Below are positions 873 to 63,330 of a stretch of DNA of 64,000 nt, piece after piece (position 1 is the first letter of the stretch; the number at the start of each line of letters is the position of its first letter). A model generated the notes under the pieces. The model made no database searches, had not been told where the DNA came from, and saw only the letters and a list, made by a program, of their open reading frames with translations. This DNA comes from Anaerolineae bacterium. Lineage in GTDB: Bacteria > Chloroflexota > Anaerolineae > B4-G1 > SLSP01. The stretch is from positions 35,188 through 99,187 of the forward strand of contig DAOTVC010000039.1 in the NCBI GenBank assembly GCA_034437215.1. The letters are read 5' to 3'. The position numbers and the translations under genes are program-made.

Positions 873-1340
873 TCAAACTCCTCCTCGGAAATTAGTCGTA
901 TAGTCTCGCAGTCTGGTAGTCAAGCAGTCATTGCATGCTTGGATGGGGTGGACAAGCACCGGCGTCTCCTTCAAGAGCAGCCTGGGCACGCGAGCGTCCC
1001 GCCCGCCAGGTTGGGGAACAAGGTGTCCGCGTTCCATCGAGAATCCGTCGCAGATCAAAGGTCAACAGCGAACGTCCTCTGCAGACCCGGCGGGTGCGCG
1101 TGAGGAGATCGCCTCTACGAGGAGACACCTATGAAGACGTCAGGGGGGACTTTCGAGTTCCGCACACCTCACGTTTGATCTCCTCCGCGCCCCCACTATA
1201 ATGATGGAGGGGTGTTTCAACCTAGTCGGAAGCGATCCCTCGCTGAAACGTGAGGATCTCACATTTTACGTTTCACCTTTCATGCCTCGGCTTGACTCAG
1301 CGGAGACATACCCTAACGATTGTAAGGGGGACAGAAGATA

Positions 1341-4061: not shown

Positions 4062-5450
4062 TTGACAGCCAAGCAGACTCATATACCATTCAACCAAGGT
4101 CAGGAGGCAAGCAAAATGTCCATCGACGTAGTGTCCCGTGCCCAAGAAGATCAAGTACACTTTATCAGCTTACAGTTCATCGACATTCTGGGGAACATCA
4201 AGAGCGTGACCATCCCGGTCCAGCAGCTGGAGAACGCCCTTCAAGAGGGAGTCTGGTTTGACGGCTCCTCCATTCAGGGCTTCGCGCGCATCTACGAGAG
4301 CGACCGCGTCCTCGTGCCTGACCCCGGCACCTACCGGGTACTCCCCTGGAGCGCCCCGGAGCGGCGCCGGGCGCGCATCCTCTGTGACGTACACGGCCCG
4401 GACGGGGACCCCGCCGCCAATGACCCGCGTACCGTCCTCAAGCGCGCCGTGGAGCGCGCGGCGCAGCGGGGATACGTCTACAACACCGGGCCGGAGATCG
4501 AGTTCTTTATCTTCGAGAGAGCGGCTCACTCCCCTCTCAGTCCCGTCCCCCACGACGTCGTGGGTTACTTCGATTTCTCGCCGCGGGACAAGGCCCAACA
4601 GGTACGCAGCGAGATCGTCCTGGCACTGCAGGCTCTGGGTATCGAGGTCGAGATGAGCCACCACGAGGTAGCGACGGGCCAACACGAGATCGACTTCCGC
4701 TACGCCGACGCTCTCACCAGCGCCGACAACGCCGTCACCTTCAAGTCCGCCGTAAGGGCCGTCGCCGCCAGCCACGATCTCTACGCCAGTTTCATGCCGA
4801 AGCCTATCTTCGGGATCAACGGCTCGGGCATGCACACCCACCAGAGCTTCGCGGGCCGCGATAACGGACGCAATCTCTTCTACGATGCTCACGACACCCA
4901 CCACCTCTCCTCCCTGGCGCGCTCCTTCGTGGCGGGACAGTTAGCCCACGCCCGGGCCCTCTCCGCCATCGTCGCTCCCACCGTCAACAGCTACAAGCGG
5001 CTCACGCCGGGCTACGAGGCCCCCGTCTACATCTCCTGGGCCCACCGCAACCGCTCCGCCCTCATCCGCGTGCCCTCGGCACGTCCCGGACATGAGGCGG
5101 CGATGCGCGTCGAGCTCCGCTGCCCGGATCCCAGCGCTAACCCCTATCTCGCCTTCACCGCGATGTTGGCGGCCGGGCTGGACGGTATCGAGAAGGAGCT
5201 GAAACCACCGGCGATGGTCAACGAGGACATCTACCATCTGGAGCCGGCCGACCTGGAGGCGCGCGGGATCCAGACGCTGCCCGGCACGCTGGGGGAGGCC
5301 CTGGAGGCCCTGGAGAGAGACGAGGTGCTTCTCGAGGCCCTGGGTGCGCCCATCGTGGAGGCCTTTATGCGGGCTCGCCGGGCCGAGTGGGAGGAGTATC
5401 GCATCCAGGTCACGCCGTGGGAGCTGGAACGCTATTTAGAAACGGCCTGA
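4062..5450 (+). CDS. glnA: Glutamine synthetase type I
   Basis: 462 aa. Beta-grasp motif FDGSSI and ATP-binding region KPIFGINGSGMHTHQS; length typical of GSI. Confidence 0.9.
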   Translation: MTAKQTHIPFNQGQEASKMSIDVVSRAQEDQVHFISLQFIDILGNIKSVTIPVQQLENALQEGVWFDGSSIQGFARIYESDRVLVPDPGTYRVLPWSAPERRRARILCDVHGPDGDPAANDPRTVLKRAVERAAQRGYVYNTGPEIEFFIFERAAHSPLSPVPHDVVGYFDFSPRDKAQQVRSEIVLALQALGIEVEMSHHEVATGQHEIDFRYADALTSADNAVTFKSAVRAVAASHDLYASFMPKPIFGINGSGMHTHQSFAGRDNGRNLFYDAHDTHHLSSLARSFVAGQLAHARALSAIVAPTVNSYKRLTPGYEAPVYISWAHRNRSALIRVPSARPGHEAAMRVELRCPDPSANPYLAFTAMLAAGLDGIEKELKPPAMVNEDIYHLEPADLEARGIQTLPGTLGEALEALERDEVLLEALGAPIVEAFMRARRAEWEEYRIQVTPWELERYLETA

Positions 5451-5470
5451 AGCAGTTACTAGGGGGATGC

Positions 5471-5638
5471 CTGCCGTAGGCGGGGCAATCCCTGCCGTAG
5501 GCGGGGCAATCCCTGCCGTAGGCGGGGCAATCCCTGCCGTAGGCGGGGCAATCCCTGCCGGAGGCGGGGCAATCCCTGCCGTAGGCGGGGCAATCCCTGC
5601 CGGAGGCGGGGCAATCCCTGCCGGAGGCGGGGCAAGCA
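5471..5638. repeat. Tandem direct repeat of a 21-bp unit CTGCCGTAGGCGGGGCAATCC, about 8 copies, some with the T-to-G variant GGAGG. Flanked by the 12-bp inverted repeat GGGATGCCTGCC (5464-5475) ... GGCAGGCATCCC (5641-5652)
   Basis: Counted directly in the sequence. Intergenic between glnA and the NUDIX gene. ORFs 5410..5658(-) and 5467..5787(+) are artefacts of the in-frame 21-bp periodicity. Confidence 0.9.
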
Positions 5639-5668
5639 GGCGGCAGGCATCCCAACAAGGAGGAGCGT

Positions 5669-6124
5669 ATGGAGCCAGAACAGATTCCCGTCCTCTATGC
5701 CGTCGCCGGGGGGGTCGTCTACGACATACAAAAGCGCCAGGTGGTGGTGCTCATCCGCCCCTCCCGGGACGAGATCCGGCTGCCTAAAGGCCATATCCTG
5801 CCCGAGGAGAACCCCGAGCAGGCAGCCCTGAGGGAGATCACCGAGGAGACGGGCTATTCCGATCTGGAGATCGCCCTCACACTCGGAGAGCAGTTGGTCG
5901 TTTTTCCCTTCGGCAAGCACACTATTCGGCGCACGGAGTACTACTACCTGGTCTACCTCCGTTCGGAGCAGCAGGTGGAGCGCCCGCCTGCCGACGAGGA
6001 GGAGTTCTTCCCCATCTGGATCTCTCTGAACGAAGCCCTGGAGCACCTCACCTTTGAGGCCGAGCGCGAGTGGATCCGGCGGGCGCAGGCCTACCTCATA
6101 GAGCGCCGCGAAGATGGCGCGTGA
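5669..6124 (+). CDS. NUDIX hydrolase
   Basis: Nudix box GHILPEENPEQAALREITEETGY (G-x5-E-x7-REUxEExGU). RBS AAGGAGGA upstream. Confidence 0.8.
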   Translation: MEPEQIPVLYAVAGGVVYDIQKRQVVVLIRPSRDEIRLPKGHILPEENPEQAALREITEETGYSDLEIALTLGEQLVVFPFGKHTIRRTEYYYLVYLRSEQQVERPPADEEEFFPIWISLNEALEHLTFEAEREWIRRAQAYLIERREDGA

Positions 6125-6818
6125 ACGACGCGAAGCACTGAAGGCCAAGATCCTGGAGGTCCACCGGCGTCTCGGTGCCGCCTACGGTGAGCCGGAGCGC
6201 GAGGCGGAGAAGGGGGCCGTGGCCCAGCTGGTGAACACCATTCTCAGCCAGAACACCAACGACCGCAACCGCGATCTGGCCTACGATCGCCTGCGTCTAC
6301 GCTTCCCCAGCTGGGAAGCCGTGCGCGACGCGCCCCAGGAGAAGGTGATTGAAGCCATCCGCCCTGCAGGCCTGGCGCCCAGCAAGGGGCCCCGCATCCA
6401 GGAAGCCCTGCGAGAGATCACCCGCACGCAGGGCGAGATCACGCTCGACTTTCTGCGGGACCTGGGCCTTGAGGAGGCCCGGGAGTGGCTCCTCGGCATC
6501 AAGGGGGTCGGCCCCAAAACAGCCGCCATCGTGCTCCTCTTCGCCCTCGCACGGCCCGCCTTTCCGGTGGACACCCACGTGCACCGCGTGAGCCGGCGGC
6601 TGGGACTGATCCCGCAGGACACATCACGGGAGAAAGCCCACACCCTTCTGGAAGGGCTGGTTCCGGAGGCGCTCTACTATCCCTTTCACATCGAGTTGAT
6701 CCGCCACGGGCGGGAAGTCTGCACAGCCCGCAACCCGGAGCACGCCGCGTGTGGTCTACAGGATCTCTGCGACTACTATCAGGAGTTGAAGGTCGATGAA
6801 AGAGCGAACGAGAGTTAA
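6114..6818 (+). CDS. nth: Endonuclease III-like DNA glycosylase of the HhH-GPD family
   Basis: HhH-GPD signature LLGIKGVGPKTAAIVLLFAL..FPVDTHVHRV. C-terminal Cys cluster is incomplete (three Cys). Overlaps the NUDIX gene by 11 bp, so likely an operon. Confidence 0.7.
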   Translation: MARERREALKAKILEVHRRLGAAYGEPEREAEKGAVAQLVNTILSQNTNDRNRDLAYDRLRLRFPSWEAVRDAPQEKVIEAIRPAGLAPSKGPRIQEALREITRTQGEITLDFLRDLGLEEAREWLLGIKGVGPKTAAIVLLFALARPAFPVDTHVHRVSRRLGLIPQDTSREKAHTLLEGLVPEALYYPFHIELIRHGREVCTARNPEHAACGLQDLCDYYQELKVDERANES

Positions 6819-12108: not shown

Positions 12109-13350
12109 ATGAAACGTTCGACTCCCGTGTCACCCTTAGATACCTTCCAGAACAGACCTCGAGAGCAGGAACAGGAGCTGCTCGAACAACGGGTCGCCCG
12201 GTTGGAGCAGCTCCTGGCCGTTGGTCGGCGCCTGAACTCTACCCTGGAGATACCGGCGCTCCTGCTGCAGGTCGTCAGCGCGGCGCGAGAGATCACAGGC
12301 GCGGACGCGGCCTCTATCCTGCTCGTGGAGAACGACAAGACGTTGCGTTTTGCTGCCTCCTGCGGCCCCGACGACACCCTCCTCAAAACGACCGAGGTGC
12401 CCATCGACAAAAGCCTCGCGGGATGGGTGGTGCGCAATGCCGAGACCGCCATCGTGGAGGATGCCACCTCCGACCTGCGCGTCTACGTCATCGACGAGGC
12501 CCTGACCACCCGCTCCATCGTGGCGGTTCCGATGCTCTTCGGCGAGCAGGTCATCGGAGTGCTGGAAAGCCTGACCCACCACGAACAGCACCGCTTCAGC
12601 CCTCACGACGTTGAGGCCCTGGAGACCCTGGCCGGTATCGCTGCCGTGGCCGTGCAGAACGCACGCCTCTTCCAACAGAGTGACTGGATCGCTGAGATCG
12701 TTCACGAGATCCGCACCCCCCTCACCTCCATCATGACCTATGCCGACCTTCTCGCCACCCGTCAGTTACAGCCTCACTCGCGCCAGAAGTTCGTGGAGAT
12801 CATCAACCATGAGGCCAACCGGGTCAACGGTCTCATCAACCAATTCCTGGATCTGGCCCGGCTGGAGTCAGGCCGGGTCATCATGAAGCGCACGCCCTTC
12901 TCCCTGGCAGAGGTCATCCGGCTCTCCCGGGATCTCATCCGCCCCCAGGCCGACGAACGGCAGATGTCCCTGGAGGTGGTCGTCCCTCCGGACCTACCCG
13001 AGGTTCTGGGGGACGCCGAACGCATCCAGCAGGTGCTGCTCAACTTTCTCTCCAATGCCGTGAAGTATGCCAATCCAGGCGATCGCATCTCGGTAGCTTG
13101 CGAGGTGGGGGCGGAGGAGCTCATCGTGACGGTCACCGATACGGGGCCCGGCATCGCCAAAGAGCACCAGCAGGGTCTCTTTGAGAAGTTCTCGCGCGTT
13201 CCCGGCAGCGAGGAGCGCGCCGAAGGCTCGGGACTGGGCTTGAACATCGCACGTCAGATCATCCTGGCCCACCAAGGCCGCGTCTGGCTGGAGAGCGAGG
13301 CAGGAGAAGGGAGCACCTTCGCCTTTTCCCTCCCCCTGACCACCGAGTGA
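12109..13350 (+). CDS. GAF-domain sensor histidine kinase
   Basis: GAF region; HisKA H-box EIVHEIRTPLTSI; HATPase_c G-boxes (GSGLGLNIARQI). Confidence 0.8.
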   Translation: MKRSTPVSPLDTFQNRPREQEQELLEQRVARLEQLLAVGRRLNSTLEIPALLLQVVSAAREITGADAASILLVENDKTLRFAASCGPDDTLLKTTEVPIDKSLAGWVVRNAETAIVEDATSDLRVYVIDEALTTRSIVAVPMLFGEQVIGVLESLTHHEQHRFSPHDVEALETLAGIAAVAVQNARLFQQSDWIAEIVHEIRTPLTSIMTYADLLATRQLQPHSRQKFVEIINHEANRVNGLINQFLDLARLESGRVIMKRTPFSLAEVIRLSRDLIRPQADERQMSLEVVVPPDLPEVLGDAERIQQVLLNFLSNAVKYANPGDRISVACEVGAEELIVTVTDTGPGIAKEHQQGLFEKFSRVPGSEERAEGSGLGLNIARQIILAHQGRVWLESEAGEGSTFAFSLPLTTE

Positions 13351-27891: not shown

Positions 27892-28002
27892 GATTCCAAC
27901 CTCCTCACTTCTTGCTCTTCCAACCGGCACTCAAACCTGGCACTAGGCCAAGGATCAATGATACCGCATTTCACGCTGTTTGCAAGTTTAACCAACCGGC
28001 CC

Positions 28003-47236: not shown

Positions 47237-47440
47237 CCTTAATCCTCTCCTCTTGGAGTTCTCCAGAAATCCCCCGCCGGATTCTGTGGACCAATGCGCA
47301 GCTTTACTTTAAACGCCAAACGGAAGCGAGGAAAATGCCCGCTTCTCGTTGTAATCCTGTCTGTAGCGATATCTCAAGCGATTGAGTATTATACCATGTC
47401 TCCTGCAGGCGTCAAAGGGGCTTTGGATATTCAAGCAGGA

Positions 47441-47596
47441 CTGCCCTGGAAAAACTCCTTCCAACACGGAGAACACCGAGAAAACCAAGGAGATAGTGAA
47501 ACATCTTTATAAAAAGCGCTCTTGTGCCTGATTTTATGAAGTCCGATTTAAAAAATCTCCGTGCCCTCTGTGGTAAAAAGGCTTTTTTCAGCAGAG
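47441..47596. mobile_element. MITE-like ~156-bp palindromic element, copy 1, flanked by a perfect 10-bp direct repeat TCAAGCAGGA (47431-47440 and 47597-47606)
   Basis: Seen in the sequence. Terminal inverted repeats (CTGCCCTGGAAAAA.. / ..TTTTTTCAGCAGAG) and internal ACGGAGA / TCTCCGT symmetry. Homologous copies at 49606-49762 and 63197-63330. Confidence 0.55.
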
Positions 47597-47643
47597 TCAA
47601 GCAGGAATTTTGGATATCCCGGAGCAGGAAGCCCTGTAGGCCC

Positions 47644-48423: not shown

Positions 48424-49452
48424 TCACCCGGTCGTGCCCCAGGTCAGGACGGCATAGTCAGCCGGCTCGATGCCCCCCTTGGGCGTCAGCAGGACGGTGA
48501 AAGCAGCGCTCTCCCCGGAGGCGAGCGCCTGCTCCGCTGCCAACACCGCCTCCCGGTAGGCGATGACCTGGCCCTCCGCATCGTAGAGGGTGACGACGAC
48601 GGTCACGGGGCTCACAGGGGAGGGTGTGTCGTTGAGCACCCGACCGGCCACGCGGTACTGGGGGCCCGAGACCCCCGCCTGCAACTCGAGCAGGGTGAGG
48701 GGGACGAAGCCGGCGGTGATCGCACTGATCAGCTCCGCCCGCCGCAGGCTCACGCGCGCCTCCGCCGCTCCGGGCGGGGGGCTCTCGAAGAGCAGTGCGA
48801 AGGGCGCCCGCTTCCCCGGAGACAGATAGTCGGCGGCAGCCAGCGTGTTCTCGGTCACGAGGGGCGTTCCCCCGGCATCCAGCAGCGTCACCTGCACCTG
48901 CAGATTCGTGACGGGATTGGCCGTGGCGTTGACCACCTCGCCCATGCACCAGAGCCCTCCCACCGCCGTCGGGTAGAGCCCCACCCCCGAGGCCTCCAGG
49001 GGTATGGGCGTCGGTGTGGGTAACAAGAGATTATCGATGGGAAGAGGAGCAGCGACCTCCGCTTCCTCCTCGGTCGAGCGCAAGGGGATGACGAGGGACT
49101 GCCCGATGCTCAAGGCGTTCGGATCGTCGATCCCGTTGGCCGCCTGCAGGTCCTCCACGGCCACCCCATACTCGAAAGCGATGCCGAAGAGGGTGTCCCC
49201 CGACTCCACGATGTGCATGACGGGCGTCGGCGAGGGGGAGGGCGTGAAGGTGGGCGTGGGCAGAATGGGCGTCCTGAAGGACTCGGGATCAGCGGTAGGT
49301 GGACGCTGGGGGGCATTGGGCGCCAGGGCCTCGGTCGCCGTAGGGGAGGGCAGGGGCGTGAGAACGGTACCACAGCCGGACGCCAGAAGCAGCATCGCTA
49401 ACAGCGCCAACCGGCTCCTCACCCCGCTCATCCCTCTGCCTTGGCCTCTCAC
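48424..49452 (-). CDS. Secreted lipoprotein with one LysM domain and C-terminal repeated beta-rich domains
   Basis: Signal and lipobox LLASGC; LysM (HIVESGDTLFGIAFEYGVAVEDL..); the remainder is hypothetical. Confidence 0.6.
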   Translation of the reverse strand: MRGQGRGMSGVRSRLALLAMLLLASGCGTVLTPLPSPTATEALAPNAPQRPPTADPESFRTPILPTPTFTPSPSPTPVMHIVESGDTLFGIAFEYGVAVEDLQAANGIDDPNALSIGQSLVIPLRSTEEEAEVAAPLPIDNLLLPTPTPIPLEASGVGLYPTAVGGLWCMGEVVNATANPVTNLQVQVTLLDAGGTPLVTENTLAAADYLSPGKRAPFALLFESPPPGAAEARVSLRRAELISAITAGFVPLTLLELQAGVSGPQYRVAGRVLNDTPSPVSPVTVVVTLYDAEGQVIAYREAVLAAEQALASGESAAFTVLLTPKGGIEPADYAVLTWGTTG

Positions 49453-49537
49453 AGAGGAGAATTATAACACAGACTTCGTGAAAAACCAGTCATACAAATC
49501 TCAAACTTGTATACCCCCACTTGAGCCAGACCAAGGC

Positions 49538-49590
49538 GTGAAACGTGAACTGTGAGCCCCTCACGTTTCACGCTGTACGTTTCAGCCAGG
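49538..49590. promoter_or_regulatory. Palindromic element GTGAAACGTGA-N12-TCACGTTTCAC upstream of the LysM lipoprotein gene promoter; same motif family as the site at 1237-1275
   Basis: 11-bp perfect inverted arms seen in the sequence, about 45 nt upstream of a candidate extended -10 (TGTTATAAT, minus strand) for the 48424..49452 gene. Confidence 0.35.
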
Positions 49591-49605
49591 GGTAGCTCAT
49601 AACTG

Positions 49606-49762
49606 ACTGCCCTGAAAAAACTTCTTCCACCACGGAGAACACTGAGAAAATCAAGGAGATAGTGAAATATTTTTATAAAAACGCTCTGTTTCCTGATTTT
49701 ATGAAGGTCAATTTTAAAAAAATCTCCGTGCCCTCTGTGGTAAAAAGGCTTTTTTCAGCAGA
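49606..49762. mobile_element. MITE-like element, copy 2, flanked by TCATAACTGA / TCATAACTGG (9 of 10 bp target-site duplication)
   Basis: About 85% identical to copy 1 with the same termini. Confidence 0.55.
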
Positions 49763-50066
49763 GTCATAACTGGAGGGGAACCCTAGTGTTTTGTCAAGTG
49801 TCAATTGATGAACGTGCATGGCGTCTTATCAGCCGGGGTAACTCGACTGCAGTCGCTATCCGAGGCGCTAACGCACCGCACGCCGACCTACGTCGACGCG
49901 AGTTCCGTCCACGCAGGTGGACGGTCGGCCAACGGCCCCGGTAGAGTACTTCAGTGCTCGTTTGTGGCTGTTTATCAAATCAGGTTTGACAAACCACTAG
50001 AGTGATCAGCGACTGGAACGTGCCTCGCATCAGATGTGAGAAAACACGGGCACCAGGCGGCTGCTG

Positions 50067-63196: not shown

Positions 63197-63330
63197 GGCT
63201 CTTCTGAAGAAAGCTCTCTTACCACGGAGATCACGGAGATTTTTGAAGTTTAACTTTCATAAGAATCTCCATGATTTTCTCAGTATTCTCTGTGTCCTCC
63301 GTGGTGAAATAGAGTTCTTTCAGTAGAGCC
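63197..63330. mobile_element. MITE-like element, copy 3: shorter (~134 bp) derivative in the opposite orientation, flanked by a 6-bp direct repeat AAGGAC
   Basis: The reverse complement aligns with copies 1 and 2 (CACCACGGAG..ATCTCCGTG..), with an internal deletion of about 35 bp. Confidence 0.45.

Follow-up and report, generated by a model that had tools for sequence, protein, structure and literature searches.

Repetitive extragenic palindromic (REP) sequences and bacterial interspersed mosaic elements (BIMEs) are known from Enterobacteria and Pseudomonas, where they go together with the REP-associated tyrosine (RAYT) transposases, which are Y1 enzymes of the IS200/IS605-like type. They carry a conserved 5' GTAG and are usually species-specific, and REP hairpins stabilise the mRNA upstream of them. 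The heptanucleotides GTTTCAC and GTGAAAC form the half-sites of the chromosomal partition site parS (TGTTNCACGTGAAACA), and the box A heptamer in the parS of phage P1, ATTTCAC, is nearly matched by GTTTCAC. Heptanucleotide repeats are reported to constitute the commonest class of long simple-sequence repeats and are attributed to slippage; those of the TAACTGA type are found in Beggiatoaceae, Cyanobacteria and Bacteroidetes, mostly just upstream of start codons, and consist of direct repeats of one exact heptamer, with only one inverted repeat among 170 sets (PMC4679880). The ribbon-helix-helix (RHH) protein omega/ParB of pSM19035 has as its binding sites contiguous WATCACW heptads, which may be direct or inverted and are each occupied by one dimer, and its arrays of 7-10 strictly contiguous heptads overlap plasmid gene promoters and adjoin the omega gene (PMC9499535). 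Here we compare with these systems two palindromic sites built of 7-bp units in 64,000 nucleotides of an Anaerolineae bacterium (contig DAOTVC010000039.1, positions 35,188 to 99,187 of the forward strand; this whole stretch is called the window), one located between a lipoprotein gene and a divergent ABC-2 permease operon (copy 1) and the other upstream of a gene encoding a LysM lipoprotein (copy 2).

We consider the two sites, with a probability of about 0.55, to be copies of a REP-like or heptanucleotide-repeat-like dispersed intergenic element, which is probably read as DNA by a putative protein and has a core of ~45-60 bp in a unit of 85-115 bp. An earlier note, made from the letters of this DNA, had reported a recurring palindrome; the sequences it quoted are present in the window, 5-10 bases away from where they had been placed (Table 1), and the perfect inverted repeat it described near 49538-49590 also exists, but is 13 bp long and not 11 bp (GCGTGAAACGTGA / TCACGTTTCACGC, at 49536-49548 and 49561-49573). 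Copy 1 has 8-bp arms, TGAAACGT at 1244-1251 and ACGTTTCA at 1268-1275, and in copy 2 a third ACGTTTCA is found 14 nt beyond the inverted repeat. The recurrence of the palindrome exceeds chance. In the window TCACGTTTC is observed 3 times against 0.23 expected and ACGTTTCA 6 times against 0.94, and the pattern TGAAACGT-N16-ACGTTTCA has exactly two matches with zero mismatches, at 1244-1275 and 49539-49570, where 0.10 would be expected even with up to 3 mismatches allowed. The sixth ACGTTTCA, at 12110, is isolated, overlaps the ATG of an open reading frame (ORF) and is treated as chance.

Aligned in the direction of the downstream gene, which is the plus strand for the permease and the minus strand for the LysM gene, and with the interior included, copy 1 reads TGAAACGTGAGGATCTCACATTTTACGTTTCAC and copy 2 TGAAACGTGAGGGGCTCACAGTTCACGTTTCAC. 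The homology extends over ~85 bp (1231-1311 against 49597-49509) with 64% identity overall and 88% over a 33-bp core, and since the interior aligns together with the arms over this length, the sites are two copies of one element and not independent operators. No other period-7 TCAC arrays are present in the window. The shared ~85 bp, and the multi-copy family built of the same heptads in many genomes that is described below, support another suggestion in the earlier note, that of a second family of small repeats.

A scan for the core pattern in one genome per species gave 14 loci, 6 of them in Chloroflexota and 5 in Chitinophagaceae or Sphingobacteriales, and only 2 resemble chance matches inside genes. 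A heptad-aware pattern gave 40 loci in metagenomes, of which 31 are unique. The common architecture, kept in a 7-nt register, is (GTGAnnC)1-4, GTGAG-loop(2-6 nt)-CTCAC, (GnnTCAC)1-4, so that each heptad has five fixed and two free positions; there are 2-8 units in total, the arms are often unequal, and frequent units are GTTTCAC, GCATCAC, GTCTCAC and CTTTCAC. Extra in-phase heptads beyond the search pattern are present in 12 of the 14 genome matches and in ~26 of the 31 unique metagenome sites, and as these outer heptads were not forced by the pattern they are independent evidence for the family. There are ~40 independent intergenic sites in Chloroflexota, and a variant occurs in Chitinophagaceae. 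A relaxed detector, with a null rate of 0.2 per 64 kb, revealed extra copies in the fetched loci, namely four within 4.9 kb in L039, three in L058 and two in each of four other loci. Copy number is thus high in some organisms, and 9 array-bearing contigs come from one metagenome. The copies in metagenome Ga0256835 have a common 62-nt core together with conserved flanking modules that differ between copies in a mosaic fashion. The elements are a multi-copy family, intergenic beside unrelated housekeeping genes and present or absent between close relatives.

The arms of the Ga0256835 arrays are in translational and not mirror order (a b c / a' b' c'), with GTGATGC GTAAGAC GTGAAAC to the left and GCATCAC GTCTTCAC GTTTCAC to the right, at L039 4519-4572, L059 1024-1077, L062 1295-1348, L031 2400-2453 and L042 ~2750-2802. 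In a simple hairpin this order leaves the units next to the loop and those at the outer ends mispaired. One unit is 8 nt long. Contigs with arrays also hold tandem repeats of other heptanucleotides, namely (GTGAGTT)n, (CTATCGT)n, (CCGTCGT)n and (CNGACCT)n, located at L058 8787-8835, L040 ~1290-1330 and 5540-5570, L036 1385-1420, and L039 ~90-150 and 4600-4700, so that a general tendency of these genomes to form 7-nt repeats, or selection for such repeats, is suggested. A scan of viral contigs gave two matches, neither with arrays. A BLAST search of plasmids found only a direct (GAAACGT)x4 run in Klebsiella plasmids, with neither the inverted architecture nor an adjoining partition gene; this run is located in L073 (CP037443.1 97521-97548) and in three other Klebsiella plasmids of ~110 kb, in an unannotated 1.6-kb gap that contains other tandem repeats too, such as (AAAACCTT)n and (GTCAAAACCCAAA)n. 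The architecture is not described in Rfam or in the searchable literature, where full-text matches to the heptad strings are human microRNA primers only.

The permease locus is syntenic in the relatives, with the lipoprotein gene followed by the divergent permease gene, a gene for a protein of ~500 amino acids and glnA. In the closest permease relative (L003/L004, 77% amino acid identity) the promoter CACGTTTGATCTCCTC.GCGCCCCCACTATAAT is kept base for base and runs directly into ATTGTAAGG..., the ribosome-binding site, and the ~113 bp at window 1203-1316 are missing; the remoter permease orthologues in L005-L010 have no array. At the LysM locus the relative L066, with 93% amino acid identity in the adjacent YdjM-like gene, keeps the promoter block AGTTTGA.ATTTGTATG.CTGGTTTTT.ACGA.GTCTGTGTTATAATTCTCC, while its homology to the window begins only at AGTTTGA.ATTTG (~window 49506) and the element directly upstream is missing, as it also is at the LysM locus in L067 and L069. 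By parsimony, both copies appear to be lineage-specific insertions beside promoters that are conserved without them. The block carrying copy 1 is flanked by a 7-bp direct repeat with 6 of 7 positions identical, TAATGAT at 1199-1205 and TAACGAT at 1314-1320, where L003 has a single TAATCAT, and no exact terminal inverted repeats of at least 6 nt are found in the block beyond the core.

In its behaviour the element seems to be most like REP/BIME sequences, with a unit structure that resembles the short tandemly repeated repetitive (STRR) sequences of cyanobacteria and the TAACTGA repeats. With REP/BIME it shares short imperfect extragenic palindromes at the 3' ends of genes and within operons, in some organisms a high copy number, the mosaics with other short modules and the variability between related genomes. 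It differs in having phased 7-bp units with two free positions and a consensus common to different phyla, and there is no GTAG head in the alignment of 31 sites and no RAYT gene among the ORFs flanking ~45 sites (~430 kb of array-bearing loci). Like STRR and TAACTGA repeats the arrays have a 7-nt period and 2-6 units, are intergenic and patchily distributed over distant phyla including Bacteroidota, and are found alongside other heptamers, but they are inverted about a fixed GTGAG-loop-CTCAC centre, have two free positions and are not start-codon-proximal. Miniature inverted-repeat transposable elements (MITEs; Correia elements, ERIC) are similar in having a unit of ~100 bp in intergenic DNA or 5' untranslated regions (UTRs), insertion polymorphism, a long imperfect hairpin and, at copy 1, a possible but imperfect 7-bp target duplication; clear terminal inverted repeats and a known parent insertion sequence are lacking here, and only the central heptad core is conserved across genomes. 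Integron attC sites, with their 7-bp cores at the 3' ends of ORFs, were also considered and rejected, as the housekeeping neighbours, the many convergent sites and the core sequences do not fit.

The omega system is alike in its 7-bp units of both orientations and variable number, and its (A/T)TCAC core resembles GCATCAC and GTTTCAC; binding of one dimer per heptad would also explain conservation without covariation. The differences are that the arrays have 2-8 units broken by a variable centre, that the main unit GTTTCAC misses WATCACW, and that the sites are chromosomal and mostly outside promoters, with no linked RHH gene. The two half-sites of parS adjoin each other head to head (GTTTCAC-GTGAAAC), whereas here they are in tandem and in the opposite arrangement, GTGAAAC...GTTTCAC across a spacer. 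A parS site was rejected as a candidate; none of the 16-mers of the window comes within 3 mismatches of parS, the sites are multi-copy, and no evidence of proximity to an origin was obtained.

An all-against-all BLASTP of 71 flanking ORFs gave no recurring protein family, and the genes bracketed by two arrays encode, according to Pfam, KAS, FabH, an extracytoplasmic function (ECF) sigma factor, PRAI, GGT and adenosine kinase, with no RAYT or other transposase among them. At the 16 sites where both neighbours are resolved, 6 pairs are convergent, 3 divergent and 7 tandem. A stronger apparent excess of sites directly behind stop codons was partly an artefact, and with long or Pfam-confirmed ORFs a weak bias is left, with 29 flanks toward a 3' end and 16 toward a 5' end (p = 0.07). 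The artefact is explained by the units themselves, since GTGAnnC holds a TGA and 7 equals 1 modulo 3, so that stops fall in all frames and ORFs end at arrays by construction. All three frames are stopped on the plus strand in 23 of 31 elements and on the minus strand in 17 of 31, compared with ~6% of random windows. The heptad elements thereby act as a built-in two-way translational stop and skew ORF-based analyses of context. A bolder proposal is that the GTGAnnC arrays are gene-boundary insulators across phyla (Chloroflexota and Bacteroidota), with a putative heptad-reading protein polymerising on both inverted arrays and, together with the all-frame stops, blocking read-through of transcription and translation from either side, and with the window copies as recent acquisitions that re-wire the expression of two envelope genes; we regard this as unlikely.

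The earlier note had preferred to see in the palindrome an operator bound by a dimeric transcription factor, possibly one with a cell-envelope regulon under its control. A dimeric or tetrameric factor co-regulating envelope genes would agree with the same TGAAACGT-N16-ACGTTTCA spacing at both sites, with the three half-site copies at copy 2, and with the location of both copies, in the same orientation, upstream of envelope-associated genes (ABC-2 permease and lipoprotein; LysM lipoprotein). It is nevertheless very unlikely. At both loci the nearest relatives keep the orthologous promoter but have no motif there, an outcome that the note itself had named as refuting its proposal, and the two copies have no common geometry, copy 1 being downstream of its promoter and copy 2 preceding the -10 box of the LysM gene by ~70 bp. 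Across the family the spacing of the centre varies between 2 and 6 nt and the number of heptads differs between the sides, and the neighbours are unrelated housekeeping genes; 6 of the 16 resolved sites are in spacers between convergent genes, which hold no promoter. The sequence CCTCACGTTTGATCTCC, regarded in the note as a further half-site, is the -35 region of the strong predicted promoter of the permease; it lies outside the repeat, and the promoter is kept in the relative that has no palindrome. The 11-mer TTTCACGCTGT, said to be located upstream of secY, is indeed found at 27967-27977 but downstream of that gene, between its stop codon (28003, minus strand) and rpmJ, with neither a palindrome nor a heptad array. 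When a 50-bp region is compared with 64 kb, roughly one 11-mer should match by coincidence, and the match is an isolated one due to chance.

Alternatively the element could act in RNA as a terminator, an attenuator or a 3'-end stabiliser, in which case copy 1 would be a 5'-UTR attenuator of the permease operon. The predicted folds are more stable than those of shuffled sequences: -11 kcal/mol for the 41-nt core of copy 1 (z = -3.3), -37.4 kcal/mol for its whole ~113-bp block (z = -2.2), the ends of which pair weakly, and -22.1 kcal/mol for the core of copy 2 (z = -3.0). The central hairpin of copy 1 has a 5-bp stem and then ATTTTACGTT; it was flagged as terminator-like and may resemble a weak terminator, and copy 2 got no such flag. 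The length of the loop varies as it does in hairpins, there is the modest excess just past stop codons with convergent pairs included, and the site in L012 lies within an operon, between the genes for a substrate-binding protein and a permease. In the alignment of 31 sites, where the inner 10-12 pairs are fixed by the search pattern, 72.0% of the cells pair as compared with 72.5 +/- 0.9% when the partners are shuffled among the sequences, and the covariation score of 0.129 equals the shuffled mean of 0.129. Complementary bases occupy the two free positions of the heptads in 8/19 cases against 7.0 +/- 1.5 expected, GTGAAAC often faces the non-complementary GCATCAC, and in the orientation of the transcript there is no excess of G-U (41) over A-C (44). 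With no covariation and the free positions at chance level, the potential for pairing is a by-product of symmetric conserved heptads, and symmetric heptads without compensatory changes are as expected for a protein that reads each DNA unit. The family has no consistent U-tract, the only T-run being the TTT within each heptad. Rfam 15 gave no match in the window at the gathering score, and for 11 array-bearing loci at E <= 1 only spurious sub-threshold matches to microRNAs. Copy 2, moreover, is located upstream of the predicted promoter, with 497 bp of other repeats between it and the preceding gene. An RNA-level function is unlikely. Equally improbable is a non-mobile chromosomal platform for a host protein reading heptads (omega/RHH-like or ParB-like with a helix-turn-helix), which would help to organise the nucleoid or form a roadblock to transcription at the ends of genes. 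In its favour, conservation across phyla extends to five of the seven positions of the heptad and not to the flanks, the heptad number is variable and the arrays asymmetric, the consensus alone explains the pairing, the GCATCAC variant holds the ATCAC core of the omega heptad WATCACW, and GTTTCAC is a parS half-site. However, the sites have no linked gene for a candidate protein, they are not kept at orthologous positions, copies in one organism share long flanks like duplicated DNA, neither the parS arrangement nor a parS-like 16-mer within 3 mismatches is present, and the variable centre breaks the contiguity that omega requires (PMC9499535). Replication slippage could have produced heptanucleotide simple-sequence repeats of the STRR/TAACTGA kind with no specific reader and an incidental palindrome, and it fits both the richness of the same contigs in other 7-nt tandem repeats and the attribution of the commonest long repeat class to slippage (PMC4679880). 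It leaves unexplained the invariant GTGAG-loop-CTCAC centre, the inverted symmetry at ~40 independent sites, the same heptad consensus in different phyla and the two free positions in otherwise fixed units, and Tandem Repeats Finder (TRF) detected no period-7 array at either window site; slippage is quite improbable.

If the two sites are copies of a dispersed element, as we favour, the element would spread in the host lineages by copying and insertion in a REP- or MITE-like manner. The conserved heptad would be the recognition unit of a trans-acting protein on double-stranded or hairpin DNA, with one subunit per heptad on the model of omega/ParB, and the putative reader might be a mobilising enzyme or a host architectural protein. 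The effects on the neighbouring genes of the window are then probably incidental. Several points weigh against a dispersed element. Both copies face their downstream gene in the same way, 66 and ~87-108 nt from the start codon, which is an unexplained coincidence in a repeat model, and there are only 2 copies in 64 kb, neither of which was matched by the strict pattern in the species-representative genomes. Neither a gene for mobilisation nor a reader protein nor an autonomous parent element was found. For copy 1 a deletion in the lineage of the relative is a less parsimonious but conceivable alternative, the repeat flanking its block is imperfect, and its terminal inverted repeats are not clear. 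The absence of covariation comes from 31 sites with the inner pairs given by the search, and genes in the foreign loci were called crudely, as the longest ORFs, the ends of ORFs beside the element being partly built in through TGA.

Table 1. Positions in the window of the two copies, their homologous region, the neighbouring promoter elements and the sequences quoted in the earlier note
Feature	Positions	Strand	Remarks
Copy 1, heptad array	1243..1283	+	CTGAAAC, GTGAG-GAT-CTCAC, ATTTTAC GTTTCAC CTTTCAT
Block of ~113 bp carrying copy 1	1203..1316	+	Separates the -10 box of the ABC-2 permease gene from its ribosome-binding site
Sigma-70-type promoter of the ABC-2 permease operon	1175..1202	+	TTGATC-16-TATAAT; 10/12 consensus matches
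GCTGAAACGTGAGGATCTCACATTTTACGTTTCACC	1242-1277		Given as 1237-1272 in the earlier note
CCTCACGTTTGATCTCC	1167-1183		Given as 1157-1173 in the earlier note
Copy 2, heptad array	49538..49585	-	Plus-strand text: GTGAAAC GTGAACT, GTGAG-CCC-CTCAC, GTTTCAC GCTGTAC GTTTCAG
Full homology of copy 2 to copy 1	49509..49597	-	Matches window 1231-1311; local BLAST and alignment
Extended -10 box TGTTATAAT of the LysM lipoprotein gene	49461..49469	-	Outside the repeat

With copy 1 the 5' UTR of the permease grows from ~20 nt to ~135 nt and gains a stable hairpin, so that expression may be dampened. A second promoter seen by eye within the insertion (TTGACT-16-TAACGA) was rejected, with only 2/6 matches in the -10 box. 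The same intergenic region between the lipoprotein and permease genes contains a second window-specific block of ~140-150 bp at ~890-1030, which is single-copy in the window, missing in L003 and present in L001 and L002, which are contigs of metagenome-assembled genomes (MAGs) of the same species.

At the LysM locus the distal end of copy 2 is abutted by a member, starting near 49600, of a distinct AT-rich repeat family of ~165 bp with 78-90% identity between its copies, which are located at 47439-47599 (+), 49605-49766 (+) and 63199-63323 (-) and have the inverted ends CCACGGAGAACAC... and ...TCTCCGTGCCCTCTGTGG; a similar AT-rich element is found in the same intergenic region of the relative L069, at ~5190-5340. 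The mechanically assigned GTG start of the LysM lipoprotein ORF, at 49452, is only 8 nt past the predicted -10 box. A start at ATG 49431 is more plausible, being preceded by GGCAGAGGG and conserved in L066, and implies a very short leader. Elsewhere in the window, a 21-bp tandem repeat with 7.9 copies and 97% match (5470-5635) lies in the ORF 5459-6148 on the minus strand, where it would encode a 7-residue protein repeat.

For the window itself, the result removes a tempting but wrong prediction of a regulon, and explains by copy 1 why the 5' UTR of the permease is ~113 nt longer than in the relatives. Interest in the element is moderate at the level of the family and low for gene regulation in the window. 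The family joins two long-known and poorly understood kinds of repeats, the palindromic repeats (REP/BIME) and the heptanucleotide repeats (STRR, TAACTGA), and the fixed palindromic centre, the phased units and a consensus common to Chloroflexota and Chitinophagaceae, together with the lack of covariation, point to a conserved protein reader. If this reader, be it a transposase or a host factor, is found, it would give an experimental handle on the spread of the repeats and would reveal their role at the boundaries of genes in lineages for which metagenomes are the main source of knowledge.

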